A program made the translations under genes and the position numbers. DNA of 61,460 nucleotides, the filler included. It is 10 parts of 10 records of this genome, joined end to end, with 100 filler letters (N's around TTAATTAATTAA, not from the genome) between each part and the next. Parts side by side here need not be neighbours in the genome. Positions count along the whole stretch, not along the records: positions 17,249 to 27,140 come from SRR7504441_6957; 9 more parts are not named here. One strand, written 5' to 3'. Below the pieces are notes generated by a model. That model made no database searches and was not told the origin of the DNA. It worked only from the letters and a program-made list of their open reading frames with translations. The stretch's first letter is position 1; each line of letters begins with the position of its first letter. This document shows positions 4,962 to 58,382 of the stretch, piece by piece.

Positions 4962-5061
4962 NNNNNNNNNNNNNNNNNNNNNNNNNNNNNNNNNNNNNNN
5001 NNNNNTTAATTAATTAANNNNNNNNNNNNNNNNNNNNNNNNNNNNNNNNNNNNNNNNNNNN
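4962..5061. other. Artificial contig spacer
   Basis: N-run / TTAATTAATTAA (stops in all six frames) / N-run. Confidence 0.98.
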
Positions 5062-9954: not shown

Positions 9955-10054
9955 NNNNNNNNNNNNNNNNNNNNNNNNNNNNNNNNNNNNNNNNNNNNTT
10001 AATTAATTAANNNNNNNNNNNNNNNNNNNNNNNNNNNNNNNNNNNNNNNNNNNN
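9955..10054. other. Artificial contig spacer
   Basis: N-run / TTAATTAATTAA / N-run. Confidence 0.98.
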
Positions 10055-17148: not shown

Positions 17149-17248
17149 NNNNNNNNNNNNNNNNNNNNNNNNNNNNNNNNNNNNNNNNNNNNTTAATTAA
17201 TTAANNNNNNNNNNNNNNNNNNNNNNNNNNNNNNNNNNNNNNNNNNNN
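17149..17248. other. Artificial contig spacer
   Basis: N-run / TTAATTAATTAA / N-run. Confidence 0.98.
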
Positions 17249-17706
17249 CCGATCTGACCGAGCCAAGCCTGCTTGCTGCAGTTACCTGGATGGAGCGGCA
17301 TATGCCGAACGAGAAGAAGAGTACGGTTGCCTTAGACCGGCAGTACGAGGCAAGAAAAAAACCGAAGCTGCTCCGCGGTGATCCACCCCGGCAGCACCTC
17401 CTCCTGCCCCCCCGCTGCTTTTTCCGGATCCACCATTCTGTCCGGATCCAAACATAGATCTAGACTCTTGAGTCTAGGGACCTACCGGTAGAGTCCTGCC
17501 AGAAGCAGGCGGTGGAGACTGGAGAGCCTTTAAAATCCGAGTCCAGCCGCAACTATGTTTCGACTTAAAGCTTGAATGGCGCGCTTTAAAATTTCTAGAC
17601 CGGTCTAGTACCTCTAAACTTAGAGATACATGCATAACTGCACTTAGTCTAGTCTAGATAGACCGTCGCCACCGTTCAGTGGCGTGTGACCGGATGCAAG
17701 CCAGGT

Positions 17707-19167: not shown

Positions 19168-20372
19168 ATGGCCGGGGAGGTGGAGCGGCGGTCGGCGGCC
19201 GGGCTGTCGCCGGAGCAGATCCGGGTGGTGCTCGACGGGGCGCAGCAGCCGCTGGTGCTCGAGTCGGCCATCGAGCGCTGGCCGGCCCGGGGCTGGAGCC
19301 CTGGACGGCTGGCCGAACACTTCGGGAGCGCACCGGCCCAGCTGCGCTTCCACCGACGGGATCCGGGCCGGACCCCGTGGGAGGGCGAGGGGGAGCATCG
19401 GGTGGGCTGCCGGCGGGCAGGGCGGGAGCGGCCGGGGCAGGAGTCCTCGCTGGGCGAGTTCTGCGCCTGGCTGGAGGACGAGCCCGTCTCGAAGCGGCCC
19501 AAGGGCCAAGGGCTGCCGCACCGGGCCGGCTGGTCAGGCTACTGCGCGTACAAGTACTTCCATCAGGCGGCCAGAGTCGCACGGCCCCGCTGAGCCCGGC
19601 GGCAGCTGTTCGCAGAGCACCCGGCGGCACTCGAGGCTGTGTGCTGGGACCAGCTCGGTGCGCGGCGGCCGGATGGGTCGGAGCCAGGGGCAGGGCTGGG
19701 GAACGGGGGGGGCGAGTCGGTGCTGTGGCTGGGGAGCGAAGGGGCGTGCACCCCTTGCCACTACGATACATATGGGACCAACGTGGTCGCTCAGCTTCAT
19801 GGGACCAAACAGTGGTCGCTCTGGCCGCCTGGTGCGGTCATGCTCTCAGCCGGGCCGAGTCGGCGGGCCAGAGTGCCGGCTGCGGGCCACACGCACTCCG
19901 TACGAGGAGTCCTCTGTCTTCTGCGCCCAGCCTGAGCTGCCAGCCGCGCTGACGGTGCAACTCAGCCCAGGCGAGGTGCCGCCGCCCGGGGTGCAGGCTG
20001 CAGCCAGGGCAGGTGCTGGCTGTCCCGCGCCATTGGTGGCACCTGGTCCGGTCCGAGTCTGTCAGCCTGAGCGTTAACCTGTGGCGGACGCACCCGCGGG
20101 ACCGGGAGGAGGCGGCCAACGAGGCCGTGGTCCGGCTAGTCAGTCGGGCGGTGTACGATAGCTGTGGGGCGCCCGAGAGCCAATGGCTCAACCCAGGCGA
20201 GCAGCTGTGCCCGGGTCGGTCCTGCCTGCAGGCGCTGTCCGAGCTGCTCGGACAAGAGGCGGGCCCGGCCGAGCTGGTGGACGCGCTGGCCGATCGTGAG
20301 GTGGTCGAGCTTGTGGTGGCCAAACTCAAGGCGGCAGCTACTTCTAGTGCTCTAACAGACCATCCGGGCTAA
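19168..20372 (+). CDS. HSPBAP1: JmjC-domain hydroxylase, HSPBAP1-like
   Basis: LWLGSEGACTPCHYDTYGTNVVAQLHGTKQWSLWPP and VPRHWWHLV (HxD...H); several short introns. Confidence 0.8.
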
Positions 20373-20710
20373 ACACAAAGGGATTCGCTCGAGTGTGTTG
20401 GGTCGTGTACGTTTGATGAGATGATTCATAGATACACTGTAAACAAATTCAGAAGCTGCTAAGTTCCCATCTGAAAAGATGGGACAGGAGGCCTTTACGC
20501 GATTAAAGCGTCCTCTTGATTAAAAAAGAAACTGTTGTATAGTTTCTATTGAACTATCCTTGTTGGGAGGCTGGAGCGTGGGCCCACTGGGCCGAGGTGG
20601 GTCATCGGATCGGCTGCTCAAGATCTTGATTCCGTTACTGTGGATTGGAAGCCGAGTAAGAGCTGGTCGATGGGTCCCCGTCTGACGCCGAGCGGAGTGG
20701 GAGCGGCGGC

Positions 20711-23700
20711 ATGAACTCGGAGCCGTCGATCTCGAGCTGGATCGACCCGCCCAACCCTTGCCACCGATGGAACCCGGCCACCTCGGTCAGCTTCCCGTTC
20801 CCCGAGGGGACCGGCCGGGGGTACAGACTCTTCCGCTGGGTCTTCCGCCGGTACCACAACCTGCTGGCCCCGGAGCTCAACAAGCTGCTCGCACATGAGG
20901 GCCCGCCCCCCTCGTTCGACCACCTGCTCGGCTGCCTCGAAGTGCCGGTGGCTAGCTCCGGTGAGGCCGTGATGCTGCTCTGCGCGCAAAGCTGCGGGGA
21001 CACCTTCGCGTTCGAGGAAGTCGACGGCGGCCGGATCCGGGTGATGCTGCGCGAGTGGTCCCCCGCCGACGCCCAGGAGGCGCTCGAGGCCGACGAGGCC
21101 ATGCGCGACAAGACACGCCGGGAGCGGGCGCTGTGGGCCTTCTTGTGCTCCGGCGGGGCGCTGCCGGTGCGGGCCTGGGTTGTCTCGGGGCTGATGCTCA
21201 CCCGGGCGGCGATGGACCTGTTCCCTGTGGTGATGTCGGAGGTCCGCCGCTTCCACGCCGAGTGCGCCCAAGAGGCCGGTCAGCTCAGGCACCACGCGTG
21301 GACCAGAAAGGCCGGCCGCCGGCCAAACTTTCGCTGGATAAACAGTAACCCGGCCATGTCCTGGGCGCTCGAGCCCAGCGATCGGCCGGAGGTTCTCCGG
21401 CTGCCGCTAGAGCTGGTGGACCGGCCGGCCGCTGAGGCAGTCCAGGGAGTGCTGGTCGGCGGGTGTGCGCAGGACCCTGGGATGATAGAGCTAGGGTTTG
21501 CACCGCCGATAGGGTCAATCGGGGAGCTGCGGCGGACCGTGCTGGAGGAGCTGCTGTACGAGGGGGTCCCGGCCACCGAGAACGACACGTTTGGGCTGTT
21601 TGTGGATTGGACTTCTACGTACGAGGGCGACCCATCCCAGTATGAGTCGGATTGTCAAGTGCTATGTACGGTGCTCCAGGCGGTCGGCTCGACCCAACAG
21701 CTGCGCGAGCGGGCGGCCGAGGTGCGGGCCGGCCTGTCGGCTGGTGAGTCGAGGCAGGTGCGCGGGCTTTGTGAGTCGTGGGCGCTTAAGCAGCACCTCG
21801 ACATAGCAGCGAGCTGCCAGCTGATCCAACAGCTGCTTGCGTGCGCTAACCGGCTCGACCCGGCAACCGCCGAAGCGTACGATAAGCTGAGCGGGGGGGC
21901 GCTCGAGTCCGTGCTCGCGCTCGAGCGCTCACATTTGATATACAACTGCCTGGCTGTGCTTTCTGGCCCGAGAGACCCCCGGCAGCCACAGGCACCGGGC
22001 AGGCGGGCGGGGCTGAGCGGGGGGCAGGCCAAGCGGGCCTTCTTCGAGCAGCTGAGCAAGCTCCGGATGAGTGGGACCGCCCCTGGCTCTGACGATCAGA
22101 TGCTCCAGCAGCTGAGGCTCAGACTGCAGGTGCGGTGTGCGGTGCTCCAACTGACTGGGGGCAGGCAACTGACACGGACTGGATCAGAGCAGCCCACACC
22201 GGCTGGGCCAACAGCTCTGTCCAGCTCCAGTCGACCATCAGCACCTGGCTGCACGAGCAATCAGCAGTCCAGCGCACGCTTTGGTTATACGGAGAGACCG
22301 GCGCGGGCAAGTCTGGGCTGCTCGCACAAATCGTGGACCAGTACCAGGGTCCGGAGCTGCTCGCCGCCCACTGGAGCATGCAGGGCGCCACCAGCGCCTC
22401 GCTCCACTCGGCCCTCTGCTCGCTGGTGCCTCGCGGGATGTTCTGAGTTGAGCCGGCGGGCCAGGCGCATCAGCTGGCGGCCCAGTCGCCGCGGCTGCTC
22501 CGGGCGATGCTGCAGCAGCTGGCGAGCGAGGGGACCGCACCACTCAACCAACGGACAGTGGCTGAGCTGTGCTCTCTGCTGTTTGTGGAGCCGTTTCTTG
22601 CACTCGAACCGACTCCTCAGCCGGTGCCAGACAATGATTGATCGATCGATTGACCCGGCGCAGGTGCTGCTGGTGCTGGATGGCGTGGACAACTGGCGGA
22701 CGCACGAGCTCGAGCAGCTCTGGCAGATCCTGCCCAGCCTGCAGGGCCGGGCCCGGGCGCTCCCAGGAGTTGTGCGTGTGGTGCTCTCATGTGAGTCCGA
22801 CCCGTCGATGCTCGGACTGCAAGAGAGCCCCGCGGTGCTCCCAGTGCAGGTCGAGCCCTCGGCCGGCTCGATGGAGGCGGTGCTCCACGCAGCGCTGGTC
22901 GAGAGGGCGGCCACCGAGGAGCAAGCCGAGTCGGCGCAGATGCTCGTGGTGCAGGCTCAGGCTCTGAGGGCGGCGATGAGCCCGGGCGGCTGGCAGCAAG
23001 TGCACTGGGTCAGCGCGATGCTCCAGTACGATGCGATGGTTGCCCGGGTGTACGGGAGCAAGCCCCTCCCAATCAGCCAGTGCAGCTGGGCACAGGGCGC
23101 CCAGCTTCAGGCGCTCCACCGGACACACTTTGAGCAGATGGCGCGCACCATGCTCGCGCACCAGCCCGAGACGGGGCTCACGCTGGTCCACTTGCTCTTC
23201 TCGCTGCTCCAGCTGGTCTGCGCGCTGGGGGGCGAGCCAATCAGCTTTGACATGCTGGCTCGGGTGCTCAATCCGGCTGACTCGCCGCACGTTGTCTCAC
23301 TGCTCCAGACGCTCGCCCAGCACCTGGCGCCACTCATGCACGGCCGGTATCTGGTGCTCGGCCGGTCGGTCCGCTGGTGGCTTACCCGCACAAACACAAA
23401 CGAGATGGCGCAAGCGCTCGGGGTGCCGCCCCTGAGCGTTGAGCCTCACCAGCTGATCATTACGGCGCTCCGGCAACGACCGGACAGCTGTGCGCTGGCC
23501 AAGGAGCTGGCGGAGCTGTTCGTGGCCTCAGGCCAGACTGAGAAGGCGCGCGAGCTGCTGAGCGTGGTGTCCAAGCCGTCAGTGGAGCTGGTGACATACT
23601 TGCTTGCGCTTCACCAGTGGGCAGCTGACAGCAACGGGGCACGCGAGGTGAGCTCGCCTGCTGGCCACAGGGCTCACTGGCAGGCAGGTGCTGCAACACG

Positions 23701-26700
23701 TGCTGGCGCACACGGAGATCGAAGTCACTGCCGCCATGTGGGCGGCTGGGTTGGCGTCGTGCGCAATGGAAGGCTGTCCACAAGCGGCCGAGCGCTGCTT
23801 TGGCGAGATGCGTGAGGCAGGCGCTCTGGCAGAGATCACCACGTACAATCTCATGATCGTGGCCTACTGCCGGGCCCAGCAGCCGGATGCAGCCACTGTC
23901 TGGATATCCCACATGAACGACGCTGGAGTGGCTGCCGACTTGGTCAGCCTGCGGACTCTCGTGTGTGCCTATGCCGAACTGCACAGGTCAGACCAGCCAG
24001 CGCTAGGCCTGAATCTAACTCCTGCGAGGGCAGGCCGGAGCAGGCACTCCGATGGCTGGGCCAGATGGAGTGCGCTGGGTTTCTGCCCGATTCAGCCCTG
24101 TGCACACAGGCATGCCTGCACGGTGGGCTCTGTGAGCCAGATGACAGGTGATCGATTCATGCACTGAGGCTGGAGCCGGGTTCCGGTCAGCGGCCGAGCG
24201 GATTCTGCAGCTTATGTGTGACCTTTCGCGGAGTCTGCACGCCGACACGATCAATGGGTGGCCCGGTCGGCTGGTCAAGTGCTGACTGGCGGGCAGGATA
24301 CTTGATTTTGACCTGGAGCACGCCGAGCCGAGCATGGAGGCGATCAGCAGGGTGGCGGAGGGCTGGCTGGACTGGATGAGGGCGCACCGTGTGGCGGCCA
24401 CAGTGGAGACGTACAACTTGATCATTGCTGCCATGTCGGAGACAGCAGACGAGCCCGAGCAGGTTTCGCGCTGGCTGGACGCCATGGGCCAGCAGGGGCT
24501 CTCACCAGACGTGAACTCGATCATCCACGTGGCAGAGTCATACGCACAGGCCAAGCAGCCGCACGAGGCCGCCTGGTGGCTGCAGCAGCTGCCTAGCTTA
24601 GGACTCCAGCCGTCTGCTCAGAGCTTTGAGTGTGGGGTGCGGGCCTATATTGAAGCCGGGATGCCGCAGGAAGCCTTGACCTGGCTGCACAAGCTCTGGG
24701 CTTCTGGGCTCTCGATGAGTGACACCACGCTGCTCGCACTTGTGTGTGAGGCGTTTGTGCAAGCCGGCGAGCTTGACATCCTCACAGTCGAGTGGCTTGA
24801 GTCGGTGCTCCGCCAGTCACGACTCCAGCCAGACACTATGCTATGCGACCGGCTGGTGAGCTCACTACTGCACGCCAAGCACGTGAACAAGGCTGTGCAG
24901 TGGATGGAGTGGTTTGTGCAGATCCGGGTGCTTCCAGAGATCCGGACACTCACGATGCTCATCACTGCTCTCGCCGCTGCACGAATGCCGGTGGAGTGTG
25001 CGATGTGGATCAACCACATGGAGAACTTGGCCGGTGTCAAACCGTGCACTGTGCACTACAATGCAGTGATCGCGGCCTTTTCTCGCTCGGGACAGGCAGA
25101 GATGGCCGCGTGGTGGCTCAACCACATGCAGGCGAAAGGAGCCCAGCGGGATGTGGTCAGCTTCTCCACTGTAATATCAGCATACGCTGCCGCCAAGAAG
25201 TGCGAGGAGGCAGCTGAGTGGCTCGAAGCGATGAAGGTGGCTGGGGTCCAGCCCGACATCATCTCTTACAACACTGTGATCTCGGCGTACGCTGCCTCCA
25301 AGCGCCCGGAGGAGGCTGCTCACTGGCTCACCTGCATGCGCCAGGCGAGAATCGAGCCCGACGTCTTCAGCTACAACACGGTGGTATCAGCGTATGCTGG
25401 CGCCCGCCGGGCCTCGGAAGCGGCCGAGTGGTTGAACAGGATGCGCGTTGCTGGAGTCCAGCCGGACGTGGTCAGCTTCAACACTGTCATCTCAGCCTAC
25501 GCTGGAACCAACGAGCCGCACCAGGCGGTGCTCTGGCTGGAGTCGATGAAGGAAGCGCAGATCGAGCCGGACGTAGTCAGCTATAACACTGTGATCTCTG
25601 CGTTTGCCACTGCCGGCGAGCCGCTGGAGGCAGCAGCCTGGCTGGAGAAGATGTCGCGTGAGGCCTCGCTCAACCCGGATGTGGTGAGCTACTCCACCGT
25701 GATCTCGGCGTATGCGAATGTGGCAATGGCAGCCGAGGCCGCCGAGTGGCTCAAGCGGATGCAGCACGCAGGAGTAGAGCCCAACGTGGTCAGCTTCTCC
25801 AGCGTGATCTCTGCATATGCGGCAGCCAAGCAGCCGAACGAGGCTGGGTGGTGGCTGGAGGCCATGAAGCAGTCCGGGATAGAGCCCAACGTAGTAAGCT
25901 TTTCCGCCGTGATCTCTGCATATGCGAGCGCTCGCCAGCCTGATAAGGCAGCCGAGTGGCTCAACAAGATGCGCGCCTCCGGGATCGAGCCAAACGTGGT
26001 GAGCTTCTCCACTGTCATGGATGCCTATGCGCGTGTGGGCGCGCTCGGGCCGTGCCAGTGGTATCTGGACGAGATGATCGGGCTCGGGCTGAGGCCGAAC
26101 AGGTACACGTACGGCGCTCTGCTGCAGGCGTGCGGCCGGTGCAACGAACCGCAGCTGGCTTGGATGTATTTCGAGCGGCTGCTCTCGGAAGGAGTCGAGC
26201 TGCACAAGTTTCTGTTCGACTGGCTCGAGCGGGTGCCATGCTTGATTGAGCGAGTGCTGACAGTCGGGCAGGTGCTGGGCGAGCAGTCGTTTGAATACTT
26301 TTGCCACACACACGGGCTGTCACTGGACGCGATCCGAGCTGGCAACTACAGGCACGCGCTCAACCAGGGCTCGGCGGCCCAGAACCCACTGCACGACGAT
26401 AAGCAGCCACCTCCGCCCAAGGGCGGGGCCAACCGGAAAGCCAAGGCGCGCGGGCAGGTCGCCCGGTCCAAGCAGAGCAATGGAAAGCACTCGAGGACGC
26501 GGCAGCACCAGCACCATAACAGCAAGGGCGGCGGCGGCAGGGGGCAACGCAATCGGGGCAAGGGTGGAGGTGGCCGGGGGCAGCACGGATCACAGGGCCA
26601 GAATGGATCAGCTGGCAACAGTGGCAGCAGTCGGCAGCCCCAATCTGGCATGGCGGTGGCACCTCCGCCCCCGCCCATCGAAGCTGTGTGGGACTACCAG

Positions 26701-26889
26701 CAGCCACAGCCGGCACAGAAACAACCAGCTCAGCAGCAGCCAGCTATTGCGCCCGTAGGTGGGCTGCCAGCTGCCCCACTTGCAGCACGTAGTGGGCAGC
26801 AAATGTGGCGGGTCCGAGGCACTGGCCAGGAGCCTAGCGACAACAGCCAATCCAAATGGAATATACAACAGTTTATGACTCAGAACTAA
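20711..26889 (+). CDS. ~1,940-aa protein: unknown N-terminal domain + NACHT/STAND-like P-loop NTPase + PPR array + low-complexity tail
   Basis: Nine introns (21992-22027, 22130-22164, 22426-22464, 22624-22663, 23648-23687, 23987-24033, 24110-24147, 24258-24296, ~26232-26270) give a continuous frame; Walker A GETGAGKS, Walker B VLLVLDGVD; 35-aa PPR repeats. Confidence 0.8.
25048..26205 (+). repeat. About 11 canonical P-class pentatricopeptide repeats (105-nt period, one 108 nt)
   Basis: Repeating VVS(F/Y)(N/S)TVISAYA...EAAEWL..M...G(V/I)(Q/E)P(D/N). Confidence 0.95.
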
Positions 26890-27140
26890 CTTTTCAAAAT
26901 GACCAGATCGAAATTAACTATTTTAACCCTCCAGAAAAGGAGGGACCGTAATTGCTTTTCAAAATGACCACGTCGGGTAGGACGATCAACTACAGATTGT
27001 AGACTAGTACTACAGGACTTCCGTGTAGACCAGACTGGAACTACTACTTCGCTCAATTCAGTCCACTCTGAATCAGAGTTCTCAGTAGTCAGGTCCGTCA
27101 GTGAGCTTTTAAACTTATGTAACATGTAACAACTGAATTA

Positions 27141-27240
27141 NNNNNNNNNNNNNNNNNNNNNNNNNNNNNNNNNNNNNNNNNNNNTTAATTAATTAANNNN
27201 NNNNNNNNNNNNNNNNNNNNNNNNNNNNNNNNNNNNNNNN
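27141..27240. other. Artificial contig spacer
   Basis: N-run / TTAATTAATTAA / N-run. Confidence 0.98.
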
Positions 27241-28297
27241 TGAACAAATAGCTGCCCGCTCGGCTGGCCGGGGGCCGCGGGCCGGAGGGACCAGTTTTGC
27301 TCGGACGGGTTTCCGTTGAGCTCAAAGATGTTCAGCAGGTCGTAAAACTGCCCGTGCGTGTCGCCGCACACTGTCATCCGTTTGTCCTCGTCGAAGTTAA
27401 CCCGCGTGAGCGACGGCGCCGCCACCTGCCCGCGCCGCTCGCCGCCGCCCGGCCGTAGCAGCGCACATGCTTGCGCCGCATTGCTATCAGGATCTGGAAT
27501 ACGTATCTGCCACCGCCAGTCAGCCAGTCCAGCGGCAGCCATTAGGTACTTGCGGTGGATAGACTTCTCCTCCTTGAACCACTGCATCATCTCGAGCACT
27601 GCCCCGCAGCTCAGCCGCTCGGCTGTGCCAGCTCGCACCAGACTCGATAGTCGGCGGCGAAGGTATGTGTGGGCCTTTATACGAGTCGTCCACCACTGCC
27701 CCGGGTGAGAGCGAACCCCGCCGGGCGCACCGATCTCCTCGGGGTCGAGAGTATCGCTCAGCAACTGCACGTCGTGGTCCCCGCTGATTGCATCTGCGAA
27801 CGCCTGCTTCTTGAGCTCCTTGCGGCACTCCTTGAGCTTATCCCGCGCCACCTTATCCTTGGGCTCCAGTTCCACCGCCTGCCCCCTGCTCGGCTGTCCC
27901 GCCCGGAATGGCCACCAATTTGAACGCCGCGGCCGCCTCCTTGAGCTTCCCCAGCCCGATGAACGCGCAGCCCTTGCGGTACGACGCCTGCGCCGCCGCT
28001 CGCAGCGTCAGAGCGGCCGCCAGGAGCCTTGGCGTTGGTCGGCTCGAGCCCGAGCGCGCTGGAGGCGTCCTCGATCACCGAACCCCAGTTCTCCATCCTG
28101 AGGTGGGCCATGGCCCGGTTGTTGAACAGCACGGCCAGCGGGAGCACGGCGATCCCCTGCGAGTACAGGTCCACCGCATCCTGGTACTGGCCAGCTGGCC
28201 CACTGATCAGCCCCGGCCGGCCGCAGCGCTCACCTTTGAACACCTCGTTGCCCTGCGCTTTGAACGCAAGCGCAGCTTCCTCTGTCTCTGTCGACAT
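27241..28297 (-). CDS. PPP5C: Serine/threonine protein phosphatase 5 (TPR + PPP domain), 3' truncated
   Basis: KAQGNEVFK, NRAMAHLRMENW (TPR); TVCGDTHGQFYDLLNIFELNG; eight short introns traced. Confidence 0.93.
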
Positions 28298-28500
28298 CCT
28301 CCCGCCGGATCCCGGACGCGCGCCTTCGTCTGACTGTTCAACCTAGGAATTCCCCTCCTAAAAATGAACACAAATAAATGAGTGAGAGAGGGTTCCTGGC
28401 ATCCGAGTCTATACTAACTGAGTGACTATGACTATCTAACTAAAAACAATGTCCATTTATTCAGTTACTGATCTATCGAGCTAGCTCAATACAAGCTTAG

Positions 28501-31286: not shown

Positions 31287-31386
31287 NNNNNNNNNNNNNN
31301 NNNNNNNNNNNNNNNNNNNNNNNNNNNNNNTTAATTAATTAANNNNNNNNNNNNNNNNNNNNNNNNNNNNNNNNNNNNNNNNNNNN
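31287..31386. other. Artificial contig spacer
   Basis: N-run / TTAATTAATTAA / N-run. Confidence 0.98.
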
Positions 31387-37743: not shown

Positions 37744-37842
37744 NNNNNNNNNNNNNNNNNNNNNNNNNNNNNNNNNNNNNNNNNNNNTTAATTAATTAAN
37801 NNNNNNNNNNNNNNNNNNNNNNNNNNNNNNNNNNNNNNNNNN
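37744..37842. other. Artificial contig spacer
   Basis: N-run / TTAATTAATTAA / N-run. Confidence 0.98.
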
Positions 37843-38790
37843 NGCAGCCGGGCTGGCTCTGCGGGCGGCGGCCGGGTGCGGGCTGCTCCGGCCGGCCTGA
37901 CCGGCGGGCAGCGAGGGTCGTCTGGGCGAGGCCCGCTGGAGCGCAGATCGCTGGCCGGAGCCATTGGCGCTGGCACGCTGCGAGGGTGTGCGGCCGGAGG
38001 GGCTTAGAGGCTCAGGGCGGGGCCAGGCGATAGGTACTGGTGCGTGTGGGGCGCAGACAAAAGAGCTGTCAGAGAGCTCTGCGCCGGGCTGACGCTGCCG
38101 GCGGACGGGCGGGTGGGGCGTGGGAGGTCGGATGCGGGTGATCGGCCGGTCAGGTCACGTTCGCCGGCTTGTCGGAGCACTTGCTGCAGCCGGTGCGGGC
38201 CAGTTTCAAAGTGCTGGCCAAGATTAAGTTCACTGTAGCCCCCGGCTCGCCCGGGCAGTCAGGCCGGGCCAGATGCTAGTCTACCGCGCCGGCGGGTTGG
38301 ACGGGGGCGGGACTGAGCTGCTCGAGCCGGGCGATGCCGAGCGCGTGACTGAGCACTGGGAGCACTCTGACGAGCTCAGCTATGTGCAGGCCAGGATCCG
38401 GTGAACCCTTGCCCAGCACAGAGCGGACGGCCGGCAGGGACGGCCCGACCGCCTGTGTGCGCGGCCCGGAAGGGGAAGCGGTGGCCTGGGGGCTCACGCA
38501 CAGCGAGGGCGCGGTGAGGCTGCTGAATGGATCGTGTCGTTACTGGCCGGGTGCAGATCGGTGCGGTGTTTACTATGCCCGAGCACAGGAGGCAAGGGCA
38601 CGCACTTGCAGTGGTCAGGGCGCTGGTGGGCCGGACTCAAGCGCTGGGCCGGACGGCTTATTGCTTTGTGCGGACCGACAATCAAAGCTCGTTGCAGTTG
38701 TTCGCTAGATGCGGATTCGAGCCAGTCGAGCCTGCCGTGTTCTGGCTCATGGGACAAGCGCTGACAGACGATAGCGACTCGGAAGATTGA
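37843..38790 (+). CDS. GNAT (FR47/glycine N-acyltransferase-like) acetyltransferase, 5' truncated
   Basis: IGAVFTMPEHRRQGHA...NQSSLQLFARCGF (GNAT motifs A and B). Confidence 0.8.
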
Positions 38791-50093: not shown

Positions 50094-50193
50094 NNNNNNN
50101 NNNNNNNNNNNNNNNNNNNNNNNNNNNNNNNNNNNNNTTAATTAATTAANNNNNNNNNNNNNNNNNNNNNNNNNNNNNNNNNNNNNNNNNNNN
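50094..50193. other. Artificial contig spacer
   Basis: N-run / TTAATTAATTAA / N-run. Confidence 0.98.
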
Positions 50194-54685: not shown

Positions 54686-54785
54686 NNNNNNNNNNNNNNN
54701 NNNNNNNNNNNNNNNNNNNNNNNNNNNNNTTAATTAATTAANNNNNNNNNNNNNNNNNNNNNNNNNNNNNNNNNNNNNNNNNNNN
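54686..54785. other. Artificial contig spacer
   Basis: N-run / TTAATTAATTAA / N-run. Confidence 0.98.
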
Positions 54786-58282: not shown

Positions 58283-58382
58283 NNNNNNNNNNNNNNNNNN
58301 NNNNNNNNNNNNNNNNNNNNNNNNNNTTAATTAATTAANNNNNNNNNNNNNNNNNNNNNNNNNNNNNNNNNNNNNNNNNNNN
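58283..58382. other. Artificial contig spacer
   Basis: N-run / TTAATTAATTAA / N-run. Confidence 0.98.

Follow-up and report, generated by a model that had tools for sequence, protein, structure and literature searches.

Positions 20711–26889 (plus strand) of the window, that is, of the whole 61-kb stretch of DNA analysed, are best read as a single gene with eight exons (Table 1). The predicted protein, of ~1,934–1,965 residues, is composed of an N-terminal domain, a P-loop NTPase, a helical region, an array of degenerate and then canonical PPR repeats, and a low-complexity tail. This domain order, first read from the letters alone, is borne out by Pfam and the gene model. We put the odds at about one in two that this is one nuclear gene for a protein of ~1,950 residues in which a divergent STAND NTPase with its helices, a PPR superhelix and an RGG tail make up an RNA-triggered switch. 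From its sequence, this marine microbial eukaryote protein could be a candidate sequence-specific RNA sensor, with a head domain, a nucleotide-switch module and a PPR array.

Splicing of seven short introns, those demanded by frames and stops (35–59 nt each, all GT–AG), gives one open frame of 1,959 codons, and the proposal that four separate ORFs here belong to one gene is largely upheld by this result. A CTGAC-like branch box lies ~10–15 nt upstream of the AG in most of the seven. Translated unspliced, the stretch from exon 2 through intron 2 to exon 3 contains one stop. The initial annotation had counted nine introns; seven were reproduced as forced, and the other two are in-frame candidates only. 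For its introns to add up to 353 nt, intron 6 would have to be 38 nt long, and the sole open-frame option found at that length is a GC–AG intron at 24110–24147. Intron 6 has 15 open-frame solutions, five of them with a GT donor, and because its boundaries are ambiguous the protein is 1,934–1,964 residues long, not exactly 1,941.

Table 1. Features of the predicted gene and its flanks (positions in the window)
Feature	Position	Strand	Description
Upstream ORF	20670–20714	+	14 codons; TGA overlaps main ATG (ATGA)
Start codon	20711	+	ATG
Exon 1	20711–22129	+	N-terminal domain, 473 aa
Candidate intron in exon 1	21722–21757	+	36 nt, in frame
Intron 1	22130–22164	+	35 nt, GT..CTGAC..CAG; frame 2 to 1
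Exon 2 (P-loop exon)	22165–22425	+	Walker A GETGAGKS at 22291–22314
Intron 2	22426–22464	+	39 nt, in frame, TGA inside
Exon 3	22465–22623	+	53 aa; separates Walker A from Walker B
Intron 3	22624–22663	+	40 nt; frame 1 to 2
Exon 4	22664–23647	+	328 aa; Walker B, sensor-1-like strand without Arg, helices, weakly TPR-like end
Intron 4	23648–23687	+	40 nt; frame 2 to 0
Exon 5	23688–23986	+	Earliest Pfam-significant PPR repeats
Intron 5	23987–24033	+	47 nt, GT..CTAAC..CAG
Exon 6	24034–24131	+	
Intron 6	24132–24190	+	Acceptor ambiguous: 24190 gives 59 nt, 24175 gives 44 nt
Exon 7	24191–24257	+	Starts at 24176 if intron 6 is 44 nt
Intron 7	24258–24296	+	39 nt, in frame, TGA inside, GT..CTGAC..CAG
Exon 8	24297–26889	+	Degenerate then canonical PPRs, short helical end, RGG/Q-rich tail, TAA
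Tandem repeats	25153–26205	+	Ten units of 35–36 aa; nine near-identical P-type PPRs
Candidate intron in exon 8	26233–26271	+	39 nt, in frame
Stop codon	26887–26889	+	TAA
21-nt direct repeat, 3′ flank	26890–26975	+	16 nt exact, contains UUUUCAAAA

The P-loop NTPase and the N-terminal domain

The Walker A (22291, frame 1) and Walker B (VLLVLDGVDN, 22664, frame 2) motifs lie where they had been placed earlier and are separated by 97 residues once the introns are removed. Walker A has the form GxxxxGK[ST], and in Walker B the hhhhD stretch precedes a small residue and another acidic one. The Asp-Gly-x-Asp pattern of Walker B is one that we take to be a NACHT trait. Pfam families were scored exon by exon. 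The best Pfam match of exon 2 is NPHP3_N (E = 1e-6, 29.5 bits; cut-off, 24.8), which spans profile positions 10–74 only (65 of 164) and covers the P-loop exon alone. The NACHT (16.3 bits against 26.7, E = 0.0087), NB-ARC (15.1 bits against 23.5, E = 0.014) and nSTAND_NTPase5 (E = 0.03) models score below their cut-offs on this exon, and AAA_16 is also among the weaker STAND-family matches. Of 14 prokaryote genomes used as controls, 7 have a match to the model PF24883 above its cut-off, so the exon 2 match denotes a broad P-loop group, not a specific family; a search of E. coli K-12 with this model gave no match. The other family matches of exon 2 in Pfam, PADLOC and NCBIfam are generic P-loop proteins, such as Hda, ZapE, HerA and AAA_22, and the Walker B exon alone matches no NTPase family in the three collections. 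Exons 1, 3 and 4 have no match in PADLOC or NCBIfam save one to FimV_Cterm (E = 0.045), and Pfam returned nothing meaningful for the first 179 residues of exon 4 or for the relatives P0001 and P0003. Sequence searches of the PDB gave generic P-loops for exon 2 (best E = 0.18) and no match at E ≤ 10 for an exon 4 profile.

The region after Walker B shows both likeness to and divergence from STAND proteins. STAND proteins usually have a sensor-1 Arg just past the next strand downstream of Walker B, and we take the S-C-E-S of exon 4 (…VVLSCESDP) and the S-T-V-S of P0003 (…LVVSTVSPP), aligned by eye, to be that place; the Arg is missing from both. Without it, ATP hydrolysis may be impaired or differently done. 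The AF2 model of exon 4, which is of low confidence (pLDDT 51.2), has a strand at residues 2–6, a helix, strands at 38–42 and 58–60, and then helices only. This predicted order of elements after Walker B fits a STAND-like NTPase at low confidence, and Foldseek found nothing in the PDB at E ≤ 0.001 with this low-confidence model. The neighbors of exon 4 in a protein-language-model Atlas include TPR, WHD_NWD1, WHD_MalT and DUF7779 at 0.87–0.92, the last three at 0.87–0.88, values that the Atlas rates as leads only, and TPR_19 matches the end of exon 4 below its cut-off (E = 2.9e-4).

Co-folding of the exon 2, 3 and 4 peptides with ADP scored 0.48, compared to 0.00 for the best control, a verdict of weak support. 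The mark is reached by 51 of 78 complexes of solved structure and, among mismatched pairs, by 2 of 108. With scores of 0.60 or less, only 5 of the 78 solved complexes reach it, as do all four passing mismatches (of 180). At least 53% of contacts agree between the ADP runs, with partner pLDDT of at least 47. This pass may just mirror a resemblance to solved P-loop folds.

The earlier assignment to NACHT therefore stands in part, with NPHP3_N above its cut-off on the P-loop exon only, NACHT below its own and no sensor-1 Arg. A divergent STAND-type NTPase, NACHT/NPHP3_N-like, is the best explanation of these findings, and we infer that the STAND fold continues beyond the P-loop.

The N-terminal domain, ~470 residues encoded by exon 1, has a conserved core at about residues 28–340. 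It has no family match in Pfam, PADLOC or NCBIfam and no usable match in the protein-language-model Atlas, and its fold model, of low confidence (pLDDT 58.3), found nothing in the PDB with Foldseek at E ≤ 0.001. The fold models, a check suggested at the outset for the spliced protein and run here on single exons, are too poor to place HD1 or WHD. Over 66–69% of its length, the domain has 62% identity to P0004 and 59% to P0005, two metagenomic relatives, and the ORFs of both part from exon 1 exactly at the GT of 21722. Judged from these sequences, a conserved, lineage-restricted domain is the best explanation. The start of the protein, a Met, 4–10 residues and DPPxPxH, is common to P0005, and the first 12 residues include acidic ones. 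The absence of an obvious organellar presequence, noted earlier, is in agreement with both observations, and the protein is probably cytosolic.

The PPR array and its possible ligands

The protein has ~22–24 PPR or PPR-like repeats, an approximate total since the degenerate repeats were segmented by eye. Pfam matches are strongest in exon 8 (PPR_2, E = 2.6e-94 over 13 stretches; PPR, E = 7.9e-75 over 11 stretches) and significant in exon 5 (PPR_2, E = 1.2e-9; PPR, E = 3.3e-9). A claim that the PPRs start inside exon 4 was withdrawn because its tail matches the canonical repeats at a BLASTP E-value of 21. Nine of the ten tandem units are exactly 35 residues long, and TRF reports a 105-nt period with 76% matches in the repeat region.

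PPR proteins recognize bases through position 5 (N, S or T) together with the last position (D, N or S) of each repeat. In all nine canonical repeats here, position 5 is N or S and the last residue is D or N, with the pairs running SD, ND, ND, ND, ND, SN, SN, SN, SN. Under the PPR code these repeats presumably spell roughly 5′-GUUUUAAAA-3′. The degenerate upstream repeats at model residues 1026 and 1168 have R and I at position 5. The predicted target GTTTTAAAA, allowing up to one mismatch, occurs six times in the window against 2.1 expected, a number that 4 of 100 shuffles reach and that is not informative. In the 3′ flank, the first copy of the UUUUCAAAA-containing direct repeat begins one base past the stop; the repeat is found in two exact copies within the window, where 0.15 would be expected, and to tie it to the PPR array would be speculation.

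STAND proteins are activated when a ligand on the repeat arm releases an ADP-locked state and the molecules oligomerize. In the proposed mechanism, the PPR array would bind single-stranded RNA, and this ligand, like those of other STAND proteins, would let the NTPase module leave its ADP-locked state. Release would lead to nucleotide exchange and self-association, which would gather the N-terminal domains so that they could act. The RNA binding, the switching and a possible part in defence are inferred.

The same gene and switch could instead carry a superhelix that binds a protein or peptide ligand, as TPR arms do. TPR-like arms are the rule among STAND proteins, and code residues are lacking from the degenerate end of exon 4 and from several degenerate upstream repeats. 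The exact retention of base-recognition pairs in nine of nine canonical repeats and the RGG-rich tail behind the array argue against such an arm, which we regard as unlikely.

We are similarly doubtful that the protein is a housekeeping PPR factor, organellar or cytosolic, for RNA stabilization, processing or translation, in which the P-loop module would serve as an accessory NTPase, or be a degenerate domain for nucleotide binding, and would not be a receptor-like STAND switch. Characterized PPR proteins are mostly gene-specific RNA maturation factors. The missing sensor-1 Arg and the generic P-loop character of the matches other than NPHP3_N would suit such a factor, as would its occurrence as a single copy within the 61 kb and the 50–62% identity to its relatives, a level expected of a stable orthologue. 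However, the N-terminus is not presequence-like and its start is shared with P0005, the large N-terminal domain, NTPase and repeats have the STAND layout, and the protein-language-model leads point toward STAND winged-helix families. Against the RNA-triggered switch, immune NLR families are often expanded, whereas the search for paralogues suggested earlier, at a scope of 61 kb, found none on the other nine contigs of the window.

The RNA-triggered switch can also be worded in a narrower form. The protein would then be a eukaryotic NLR-like receptor with a code-reading PPR sensor arm, in which a defined single-stranded RNA, for instance a U/A-rich one of viral origin or escaped from an organelle, its core close to GUUUUAAAA, would drive the STAND switch and assemble a novel N-terminal effector, and the UUUUCAAAA repeat could give feedback. 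At this level of detail the proposal is improbable.

Continuity of the gene

Composition, codon-position GC and intron style are uniform along the gene. GC3 exceeds GC1, and GC1 exceeds GC2, in the model frame of all eight exons. From 20590 to 26817 no 80-nt stretch falls below 45% GC, and such AT-rich troughs are present on both flanks. The reading frame of the P-loop exon (22093–22443) has no Met upstream of Walker A and so cannot begin a separate gene. Removal of intron 5 rebuilds a 35-residue repeat that scores 13.4 on a matrix of the canonical repeats, compared to −3.0 for the best of 200 shuffles, and the 35-residue periodicity is kept through introns 5 to 7. The same intron class is seen on a neighboring contig, where a conserved but unrelated TPR gene has a 39-nt GT–AG and a 40-nt GC–AG intron. 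None of the four minus-strand ORFs tested across the gene contains a Pfam family.

Relatives lend comparative support to two junctions, exon 3–exon 4 and intron 4, which their sequences suggest are conserved. In P0003, exon-3-like sequence passes straight into exon-4-like sequence, and residues 3–20 match exon 3 residues 34–51 at 17 of 18 positions. In P0001, similarity ends just after “…GARE”, and the sequence then matches a +1-frame reading of the start of exon 5 (10 of 17 residues, E = 3e-5), so that a non-conserved spacer at intron 4 is followed by exon-5-like DNA. HMMER, run with exon 4 over the full set of 1.84 billion representatives, found only three short fragments and no full-length relative. 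Word-index searches with exons 4 and 2 gave nothing at longer lengths, and of 92 pattern matches in a metagenome contig scan with a single protein, none was confirmed.

Six contigs from an oligo-dT RNA library match positions 20986–21280, 25269–25536 and 25959–26236. They derive from one run and match exons 1 and 8 with 0–2 differences per 151–268 nt; two scraps of 22–27 nt come from another contig. The RNA mapping called for initially thus places exons 1 and 8 in an RNA library, and in these three covered segments no splice junction is spanned by a read or contig.

It is highly unlikely that two adjacent genes, or a model artefact, account for the locus, with an NTPase gene ending at ~23812 or 24285 and a PPR gene starting at the ATG of 24334. 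An 851-codon frame does open at that ATG, intron 6 is ambiguous and no RNA read bridges the region. The gap between such genes would nevertheless be at most ~50 nt and GC-rich, whereas the flanking spacers are AT-rich and 225–450 nt long, and the repeat period is unbroken over introns 5 to 7. Exon 5, 40 nt past the Walker B exon, is already significantly PPR, an adjacency kept in P0001, so the NTPase–PPR fusion survives even under a two-gene model. A misjoin of two organisms or loci within the contig at 17249–27140 would be in keeping with a window of ten contigs joined by artificial spacers, which indicates a binned or fragmented assembly, but is barely credible given the uniform composition, codon-position GC and intron style along the gene and the near-identity of both gene ends to RNA-library contigs of one run.

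Precedents and significance

A C-terminal repeat arm and an N-terminal domain flank the NTPase in one polypeptide of the gene model, as in the STAND layout. The same tripartite layout is found in NACHT/NPHP3_N STAND proteins with TPR arms, such as nephrocystin-3, NWD1-like proteins and fungal NLR-like NACHT/NB-ARC-TPR proteins. Likeness to this group lies in the NPHP3_N best match, the hhhhDGxD Walker B and the exon 4 leads to WHD_NWD1, WHD_MalT and DUF7779. In contrast to it, this protein has P-type PPRs with RNA-code residues instead of TPR, WD40 or ANK repeats, no sensor-1 Arg, an N-terminal domain that matches no known effector family, and a NACHT score below the cut-off.

P-class PPR proteins, such as PPR10 and the Rf-like proteins, are essentially PPR-only or joined to RNA-enzyme domains, and are targeted to organelles. 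Our protein shares with them the tandem 35-residue repeats, the code residues and an array able to read ~9 or more nucleotides, but has ~950 residues of N-terminal domain and NTPase in front, an RGG tail and no presequence. Several animal NLRs (NLRP1, NLRP6, NOD2 and NLRX1) have been reported to bind RNA, using LRR or other regions and no base-by-base code. The likeness is in the concept of an RNA-responsive STAND receptor; PDB searches with exon 2 and the exon 4 profile found no sequence relation to them.

Closer in domain content is PaAvs5-3, a bacterial STAND defence protein (AVAST type 5), for which a preprint describes predicted PPR repeats, an nSTAND3/AAA+ module and a SIR2-type context, and discusses the PPR-like arm as a protein-ligand binder (bioRxiv 10.1101/2025.07.08.663546). 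Both proteins join a STAND NTPase to a C-terminal arm annotated as PPR, PaAvs5-3 being bacterial and this protein eukaryotic. Among the PADLOC Avs models, Avs5 matches no exon, none matches exons 1, 3 or 4, and Avs2 gives short P-loop matches only (26–28 residues, E = 0.0027–0.0077); by family model, the protein does not belong to AVAST/Avs. Plant NLR-ID lists include PPR_1 and PPR_2 among integrated domains, from genome annotation only (PMC4759884). In those predicted proteins, a STAND NTPase of the NB type likewise occurs together with PPR_1/PPR_2, and the PPRs are an extra beside the LRR sensor, whereas here the PPR array takes the place of the sensor and LRRs are absent.

Beyond PaAvs5-3 and the plant NLR-IDs, literature searches found no described NACHT/STAND–PPR receptor, and supplementary architecture tables may list such fusions; in a Ciliophrys preprint, NACHT/STAND and PPR terms occur separately. 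The initial annotation knew of no characterized NACHT–PPR protein, and the literature searches found none either, although predicted STAND–PPR proteins are in print. The combination is therefore not wholly without precedent, and none is known to have been characterized as an RNA-reading receptor.

The conserved ~310-residue N-terminal domain without a known family is a candidate new effector or adaptor module. STAND and NLR receptors recruit many repeat types as sensors, and to our knowledge nearly all characterized sensors of this kind recognize proteins or small ligands. An arm made of PPRs differs from these because its target is in principle readable from the protein sequence. If the RNA-triggered switch proves true, the protein would be a naturally occurring receptor that couples recognition of an RNA sequence to a nucleotide switch, and it would bear on the evolution of protist innate immunity, the roles of PPRs beyond organelles and the design of RNA-triggered switches.

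Gene structure and continuity of the reading frame

The gene lies entirely within the contig at 17249-27140, one of ten contigs strung together in the window. Nine artificial spacers separate these contigs, so that neighbors across a spacer need not be neighbors in the genome. With all frames translated and the sequence read, a model with eight exons and seven introns stays open without a break for 1,959 codons, starting at ATG 20711 and ending at TAA 26889. All seven introns are GT-AG, five have a GTG[CA] donor, and most carry a CTGAC- or CTAAC-like box ~10–15 nt 5′ of the acceptor. Introns of this class also interrupt an unrelated, conserved TPR gene on the next contig: one is GT-AG and 39 nt long, the other GC-AG and 40 nt long, with CTGAT/CTGAC boxes. 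Excising the 39-nt intron restores a TPR that can be aligned to solved TPR proteins. Introns this short, and GC donors, are thus normal in this organism.

Features of the gene and its surroundings
Feature	Position	Strand	Description
Intron 1	22130-22164	+	35 nt, changes frame
Intron 2	22426-22464	+	39 nt, in frame, stop codon inside
Intron 3	22624-22663	+	40 nt, changes frame
Intron 4	23648-23687	+	40 nt, changes frame
Intron 5	23987-24033	+	47 nt, changes frame
Intron 6	24132-24190	+	59 nt, changes frame, boundaries ambiguous
Intron 7	24258-24296	+	39 nt, in frame, stop codon inside
Candidate intron	21722-21757	+	36 nt, in frame, stop-free, splice signals as in the seven
Candidate intron	26233-26271	+	39 nt, in frame, stop-free, splice signals as in the seven
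Direct repeat, 21 nt, two copies	26890-26910, 26955-26975	+	16 nt exact; first copy one base past stop codon, second 65 nt later
Upstream gene, same contig	19594-20369	+	Cupin_8 (JmjC-like) domain (E=7e-7, 2e-6), its coding sequence divided between two or more frames
Upstream ORF	20670-20714	+	14 codons; TGA overlaps main start codon (ATGA)
TPR-containing gene, next contig	27241-28342	-	PP5-phosphatase-like continuation (GDTHGQ motif)
Nine spacers	4962-5061, 9955-10054, 17149-17248, 27141-27240, 31287-31386, 37744-37843, 50094-50193, 54686-54785, 58283-58382		each 44 N + TTAATTAATTAA (six-frame stop linker) + 44 N

The initial annotation had proposed nine introns totaling 353 nt. Seven introns plus the two stop-free candidates account for the number, and the candidate in exon 1 is supported because the ORFs of two metagenomic relatives, P0004 and P0005, lose all similarity to exon 1 exactly at its GT. 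The total needs a 38-nt intron 6, for which the sole solution found is GC-AG (24110-24147). Fifteen open-frame solutions were listed for intron 6, and in a 44-nt version (24132-24175) the branch-to-acceptor spacing matches the other introns at least as well as in the 59-nt version.

Several lines of evidence argue that the P-loop and PPR parts belong to one gene, as first proposed, and we put the probability of a single gene with an NTPase–PPR fusion at roughly 85–90%. In the model frame, GC3 (0.73–0.85) exceeds GC1 (0.60–0.79), which exceeds GC2 (0.43–0.54), in all eight exons. Window GC is 55–69%; AT-rich troughs of 80–450 nt lie on either side of the gene, and within 20590-26817 every 80-nt stretch has at least 45% GC. 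In the P-loop frame (22093-22443) Walker A is not preceded by any Met, so this frame must be spliced to an upstream exon. P0003, a 90-aa protein from a related organism, is identical to exon 3 residues 34–51 at 17 of 18 positions and runs without a gap into exon 4 residues 2–63, across the predicted junction of these exons. In P0001, a relative of 169 aa, identity to residues 188–328 of exon 4 is 56%, and the similarity ends directly after the last exon 4 residue; ~15 codons farther on, P0001 matches the +1-frame reading of the exon 5 start (10/17, E=3e-5). At the intron 4 site P0001 thus has a spacer that differs in length and is not conserved, followed by exon-5-like DNA, which is the appearance of an intron. 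Removal of introns 5 to 7 leaves units of 32–39 aa that keep the PPR periodicity. Joining the sequence over intron 5 rebuilds a unit of exactly 35 aa, which scores 13.4 on a canonical-repeat matrix, compared to a highest value of −3.0 in 200 shuffles.

Division into two genes is the alternative; in its most conservative form the second gene would begin at ATG 24334. Contigs from one public oligo-dT marine metatranscriptome run match the gene with 0–2 differences, although DNA can occur in an RNA library; the matches fall at 20986-21280 (exon 1) and at 25269-25536 and 25959-26236 (both exon 8), and none crosses a splice junction. Even with a start at 24334, the significant PPRs of exon 5 (PPR_2, E=1.2e-9) would still be joined 40 nt past the Walker B exon. 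The single-gene model and its domain order are well supported.

About 340 nt separate the end of the upstream Cupin_8 gene from ATG 20711. The ATGA overlap between the short upstream ORF and the main start codon could couple termination to re-initiation.

N-terminal domain and P-loop NTPase

Exon 1 (473 aa) has no match in Pfam, PADLOC or NCBIfam and no usable Atlas neighbor. Its residues ~28–340 are 62% and 59% identical to P0004 and P0005, with long invariant blocks, indicating a real, constrained domain. The AF2 model is poor (pLDDT 58.3), and fold searches with it gave nothing over background. P0005 shares the conserved start, in which acidic residues occur; an organellar presequence is thus not indicated, in agreement with the initial annotation.

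Exon 2 carries the Walker A motif GETGAGKS. Its best Pfam match is NPHP3_N (PF24883; E=1e-6, 29.5 bits against a cut-off of 24.8, profile positions 10–74 of 164), and AAA_22, NACHT (0.0087), NB-ARC (0.014), nSTAND_NTPase5 and AAA_16 all match below cut-off. In control six-frame searches PF24883 gave hits in 11 of 14 genomes from well-known prokaryotes and passed its cut-off in 7, so the exon 2 match, like others near the cut-off, means a NACHT-like P-loop only and not kinship with nephrocystin-3.

Exon 4 begins with the Walker B motif VLLVLDGVDN, 97 residues past the Walker A lysine. Its low-confidence AF2 model (pLDDT 51.2) shows strand, helix, strand, strand and thereafter only helices, an order that suits the latter half of an ASCE/STAND core with helical domains after it. 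STAND proteins usually carry a sensor-1 Arg at the corresponding place; it is absent there from both this protein and P0003. Searched alone in Pfam, exon 4 matches only TPR_19, under cut-off. Its language-model neighbors, rated as leads only, are bacterial TPR proteins (0.90–0.92) and, at 0.87–0.88, clusters with the STAND winged-helix families WHD_NWD1, WHD_MalT and DUF7779. A full HMMER scan of 1.84 billion representatives found just three fragments related to exon 4. In the database relative P0002, both ends look like translated sequencing-adapter sequence, and homology to exon 4 is confined to the middle (~residues 8–79).

Peptides of exons 2, 3 and 4 co-folded with ADP scored 0.48, compared to 0.00 for the best control, a result of weak support. 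Such a pass can stem from resemblance to solved P-loop folds. The runs had at least 53% of contacts in common and a partner pLDDT of at least 47. In calibration, 51 of 78 solved complexes reached the mark, as did 2 of 108 mismatched pairs; with a score no higher than 0.60, only 5 of the 78 did so, along with all 4 passing mismatches (of 180). Overall, the assignment as a STAND-type NTPase is probable but incomplete. As for the more specific NACHT assignment first made, the Walker motifs are in line with it, the NPHP3_N match covers part of the profile on the P-loop exon, the NACHT model scores below its cut-off and the sensor-1 Arg is absent; membership of the NACHT clade is unproven.

PPR arm, tail and 3′ flank

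The arm is unmistakably P-type PPR. It has 22 contiguous units of 32–39 aa at model residues 956–1732 (counted by eye), preceded by two weaker helical hairpins. Exon 8 contains 13 PPR_2 and 11 PPR stretches in Pfam, with further ones in exon 5, and the last ~170 residues combine RGG-type runs with a high content of G, R, Q, N and S, bearing out the repeat array and low-complexity tail originally described. Nine consecutive near-identical units lie at 25153-26100, eight of them exactly 35 aa. Adjacent units are ~76% alike at the DNA level, so the duplications are not recent. Residue 5 and the last residue of the nine units are SD, ND, ND, ND, ND, SN, SN, SN and SN, which we take to spell a predicted G-U-U-U-U-A-A-A-A in the published PPR code.

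The direct repeat in the 3′ flank has two matches in the window, both at this site, compared to 0.15 expected. Its exact part includes TTTTCAAAA, and the repeat contains UUUUCAAAA. The resemblance of UUUUCAAAA to GUUUUAAAA, the RNA target that the PPR code of this same protein predicts, is suggestive only.

Relation to known architectures

STAND/NLR proteins have the same layout, an N-terminal domain, a P-loop NTPase and a helical-repeat arm. The nearest named relatives by profile, NPHP3_N/NACHT-type proteins, have TPR arms, whereas the arm here is P-type PPR. A full-text literature search found no characterized NACHT- or STAND-PPR receptor, as the initial annotation had supposed; supplementary architecture lists may hold more. 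Two precedents for combining STAND and PPR exist: the bacterial protein PaAvs5-3 has a sensor arm with predicted PPR repeats (preprint, bioRxiv 10.1101/2025.07.08.663546), and PPR_1 and PPR_2 are listed among the domains fused to plant NLRs (survey, PMC4759884). The present protein joins a STAND-like switch and a PPR arm to a new N-terminal domain and a tail of RGG type. It may sense RNA, and any immune role would be equally putative.
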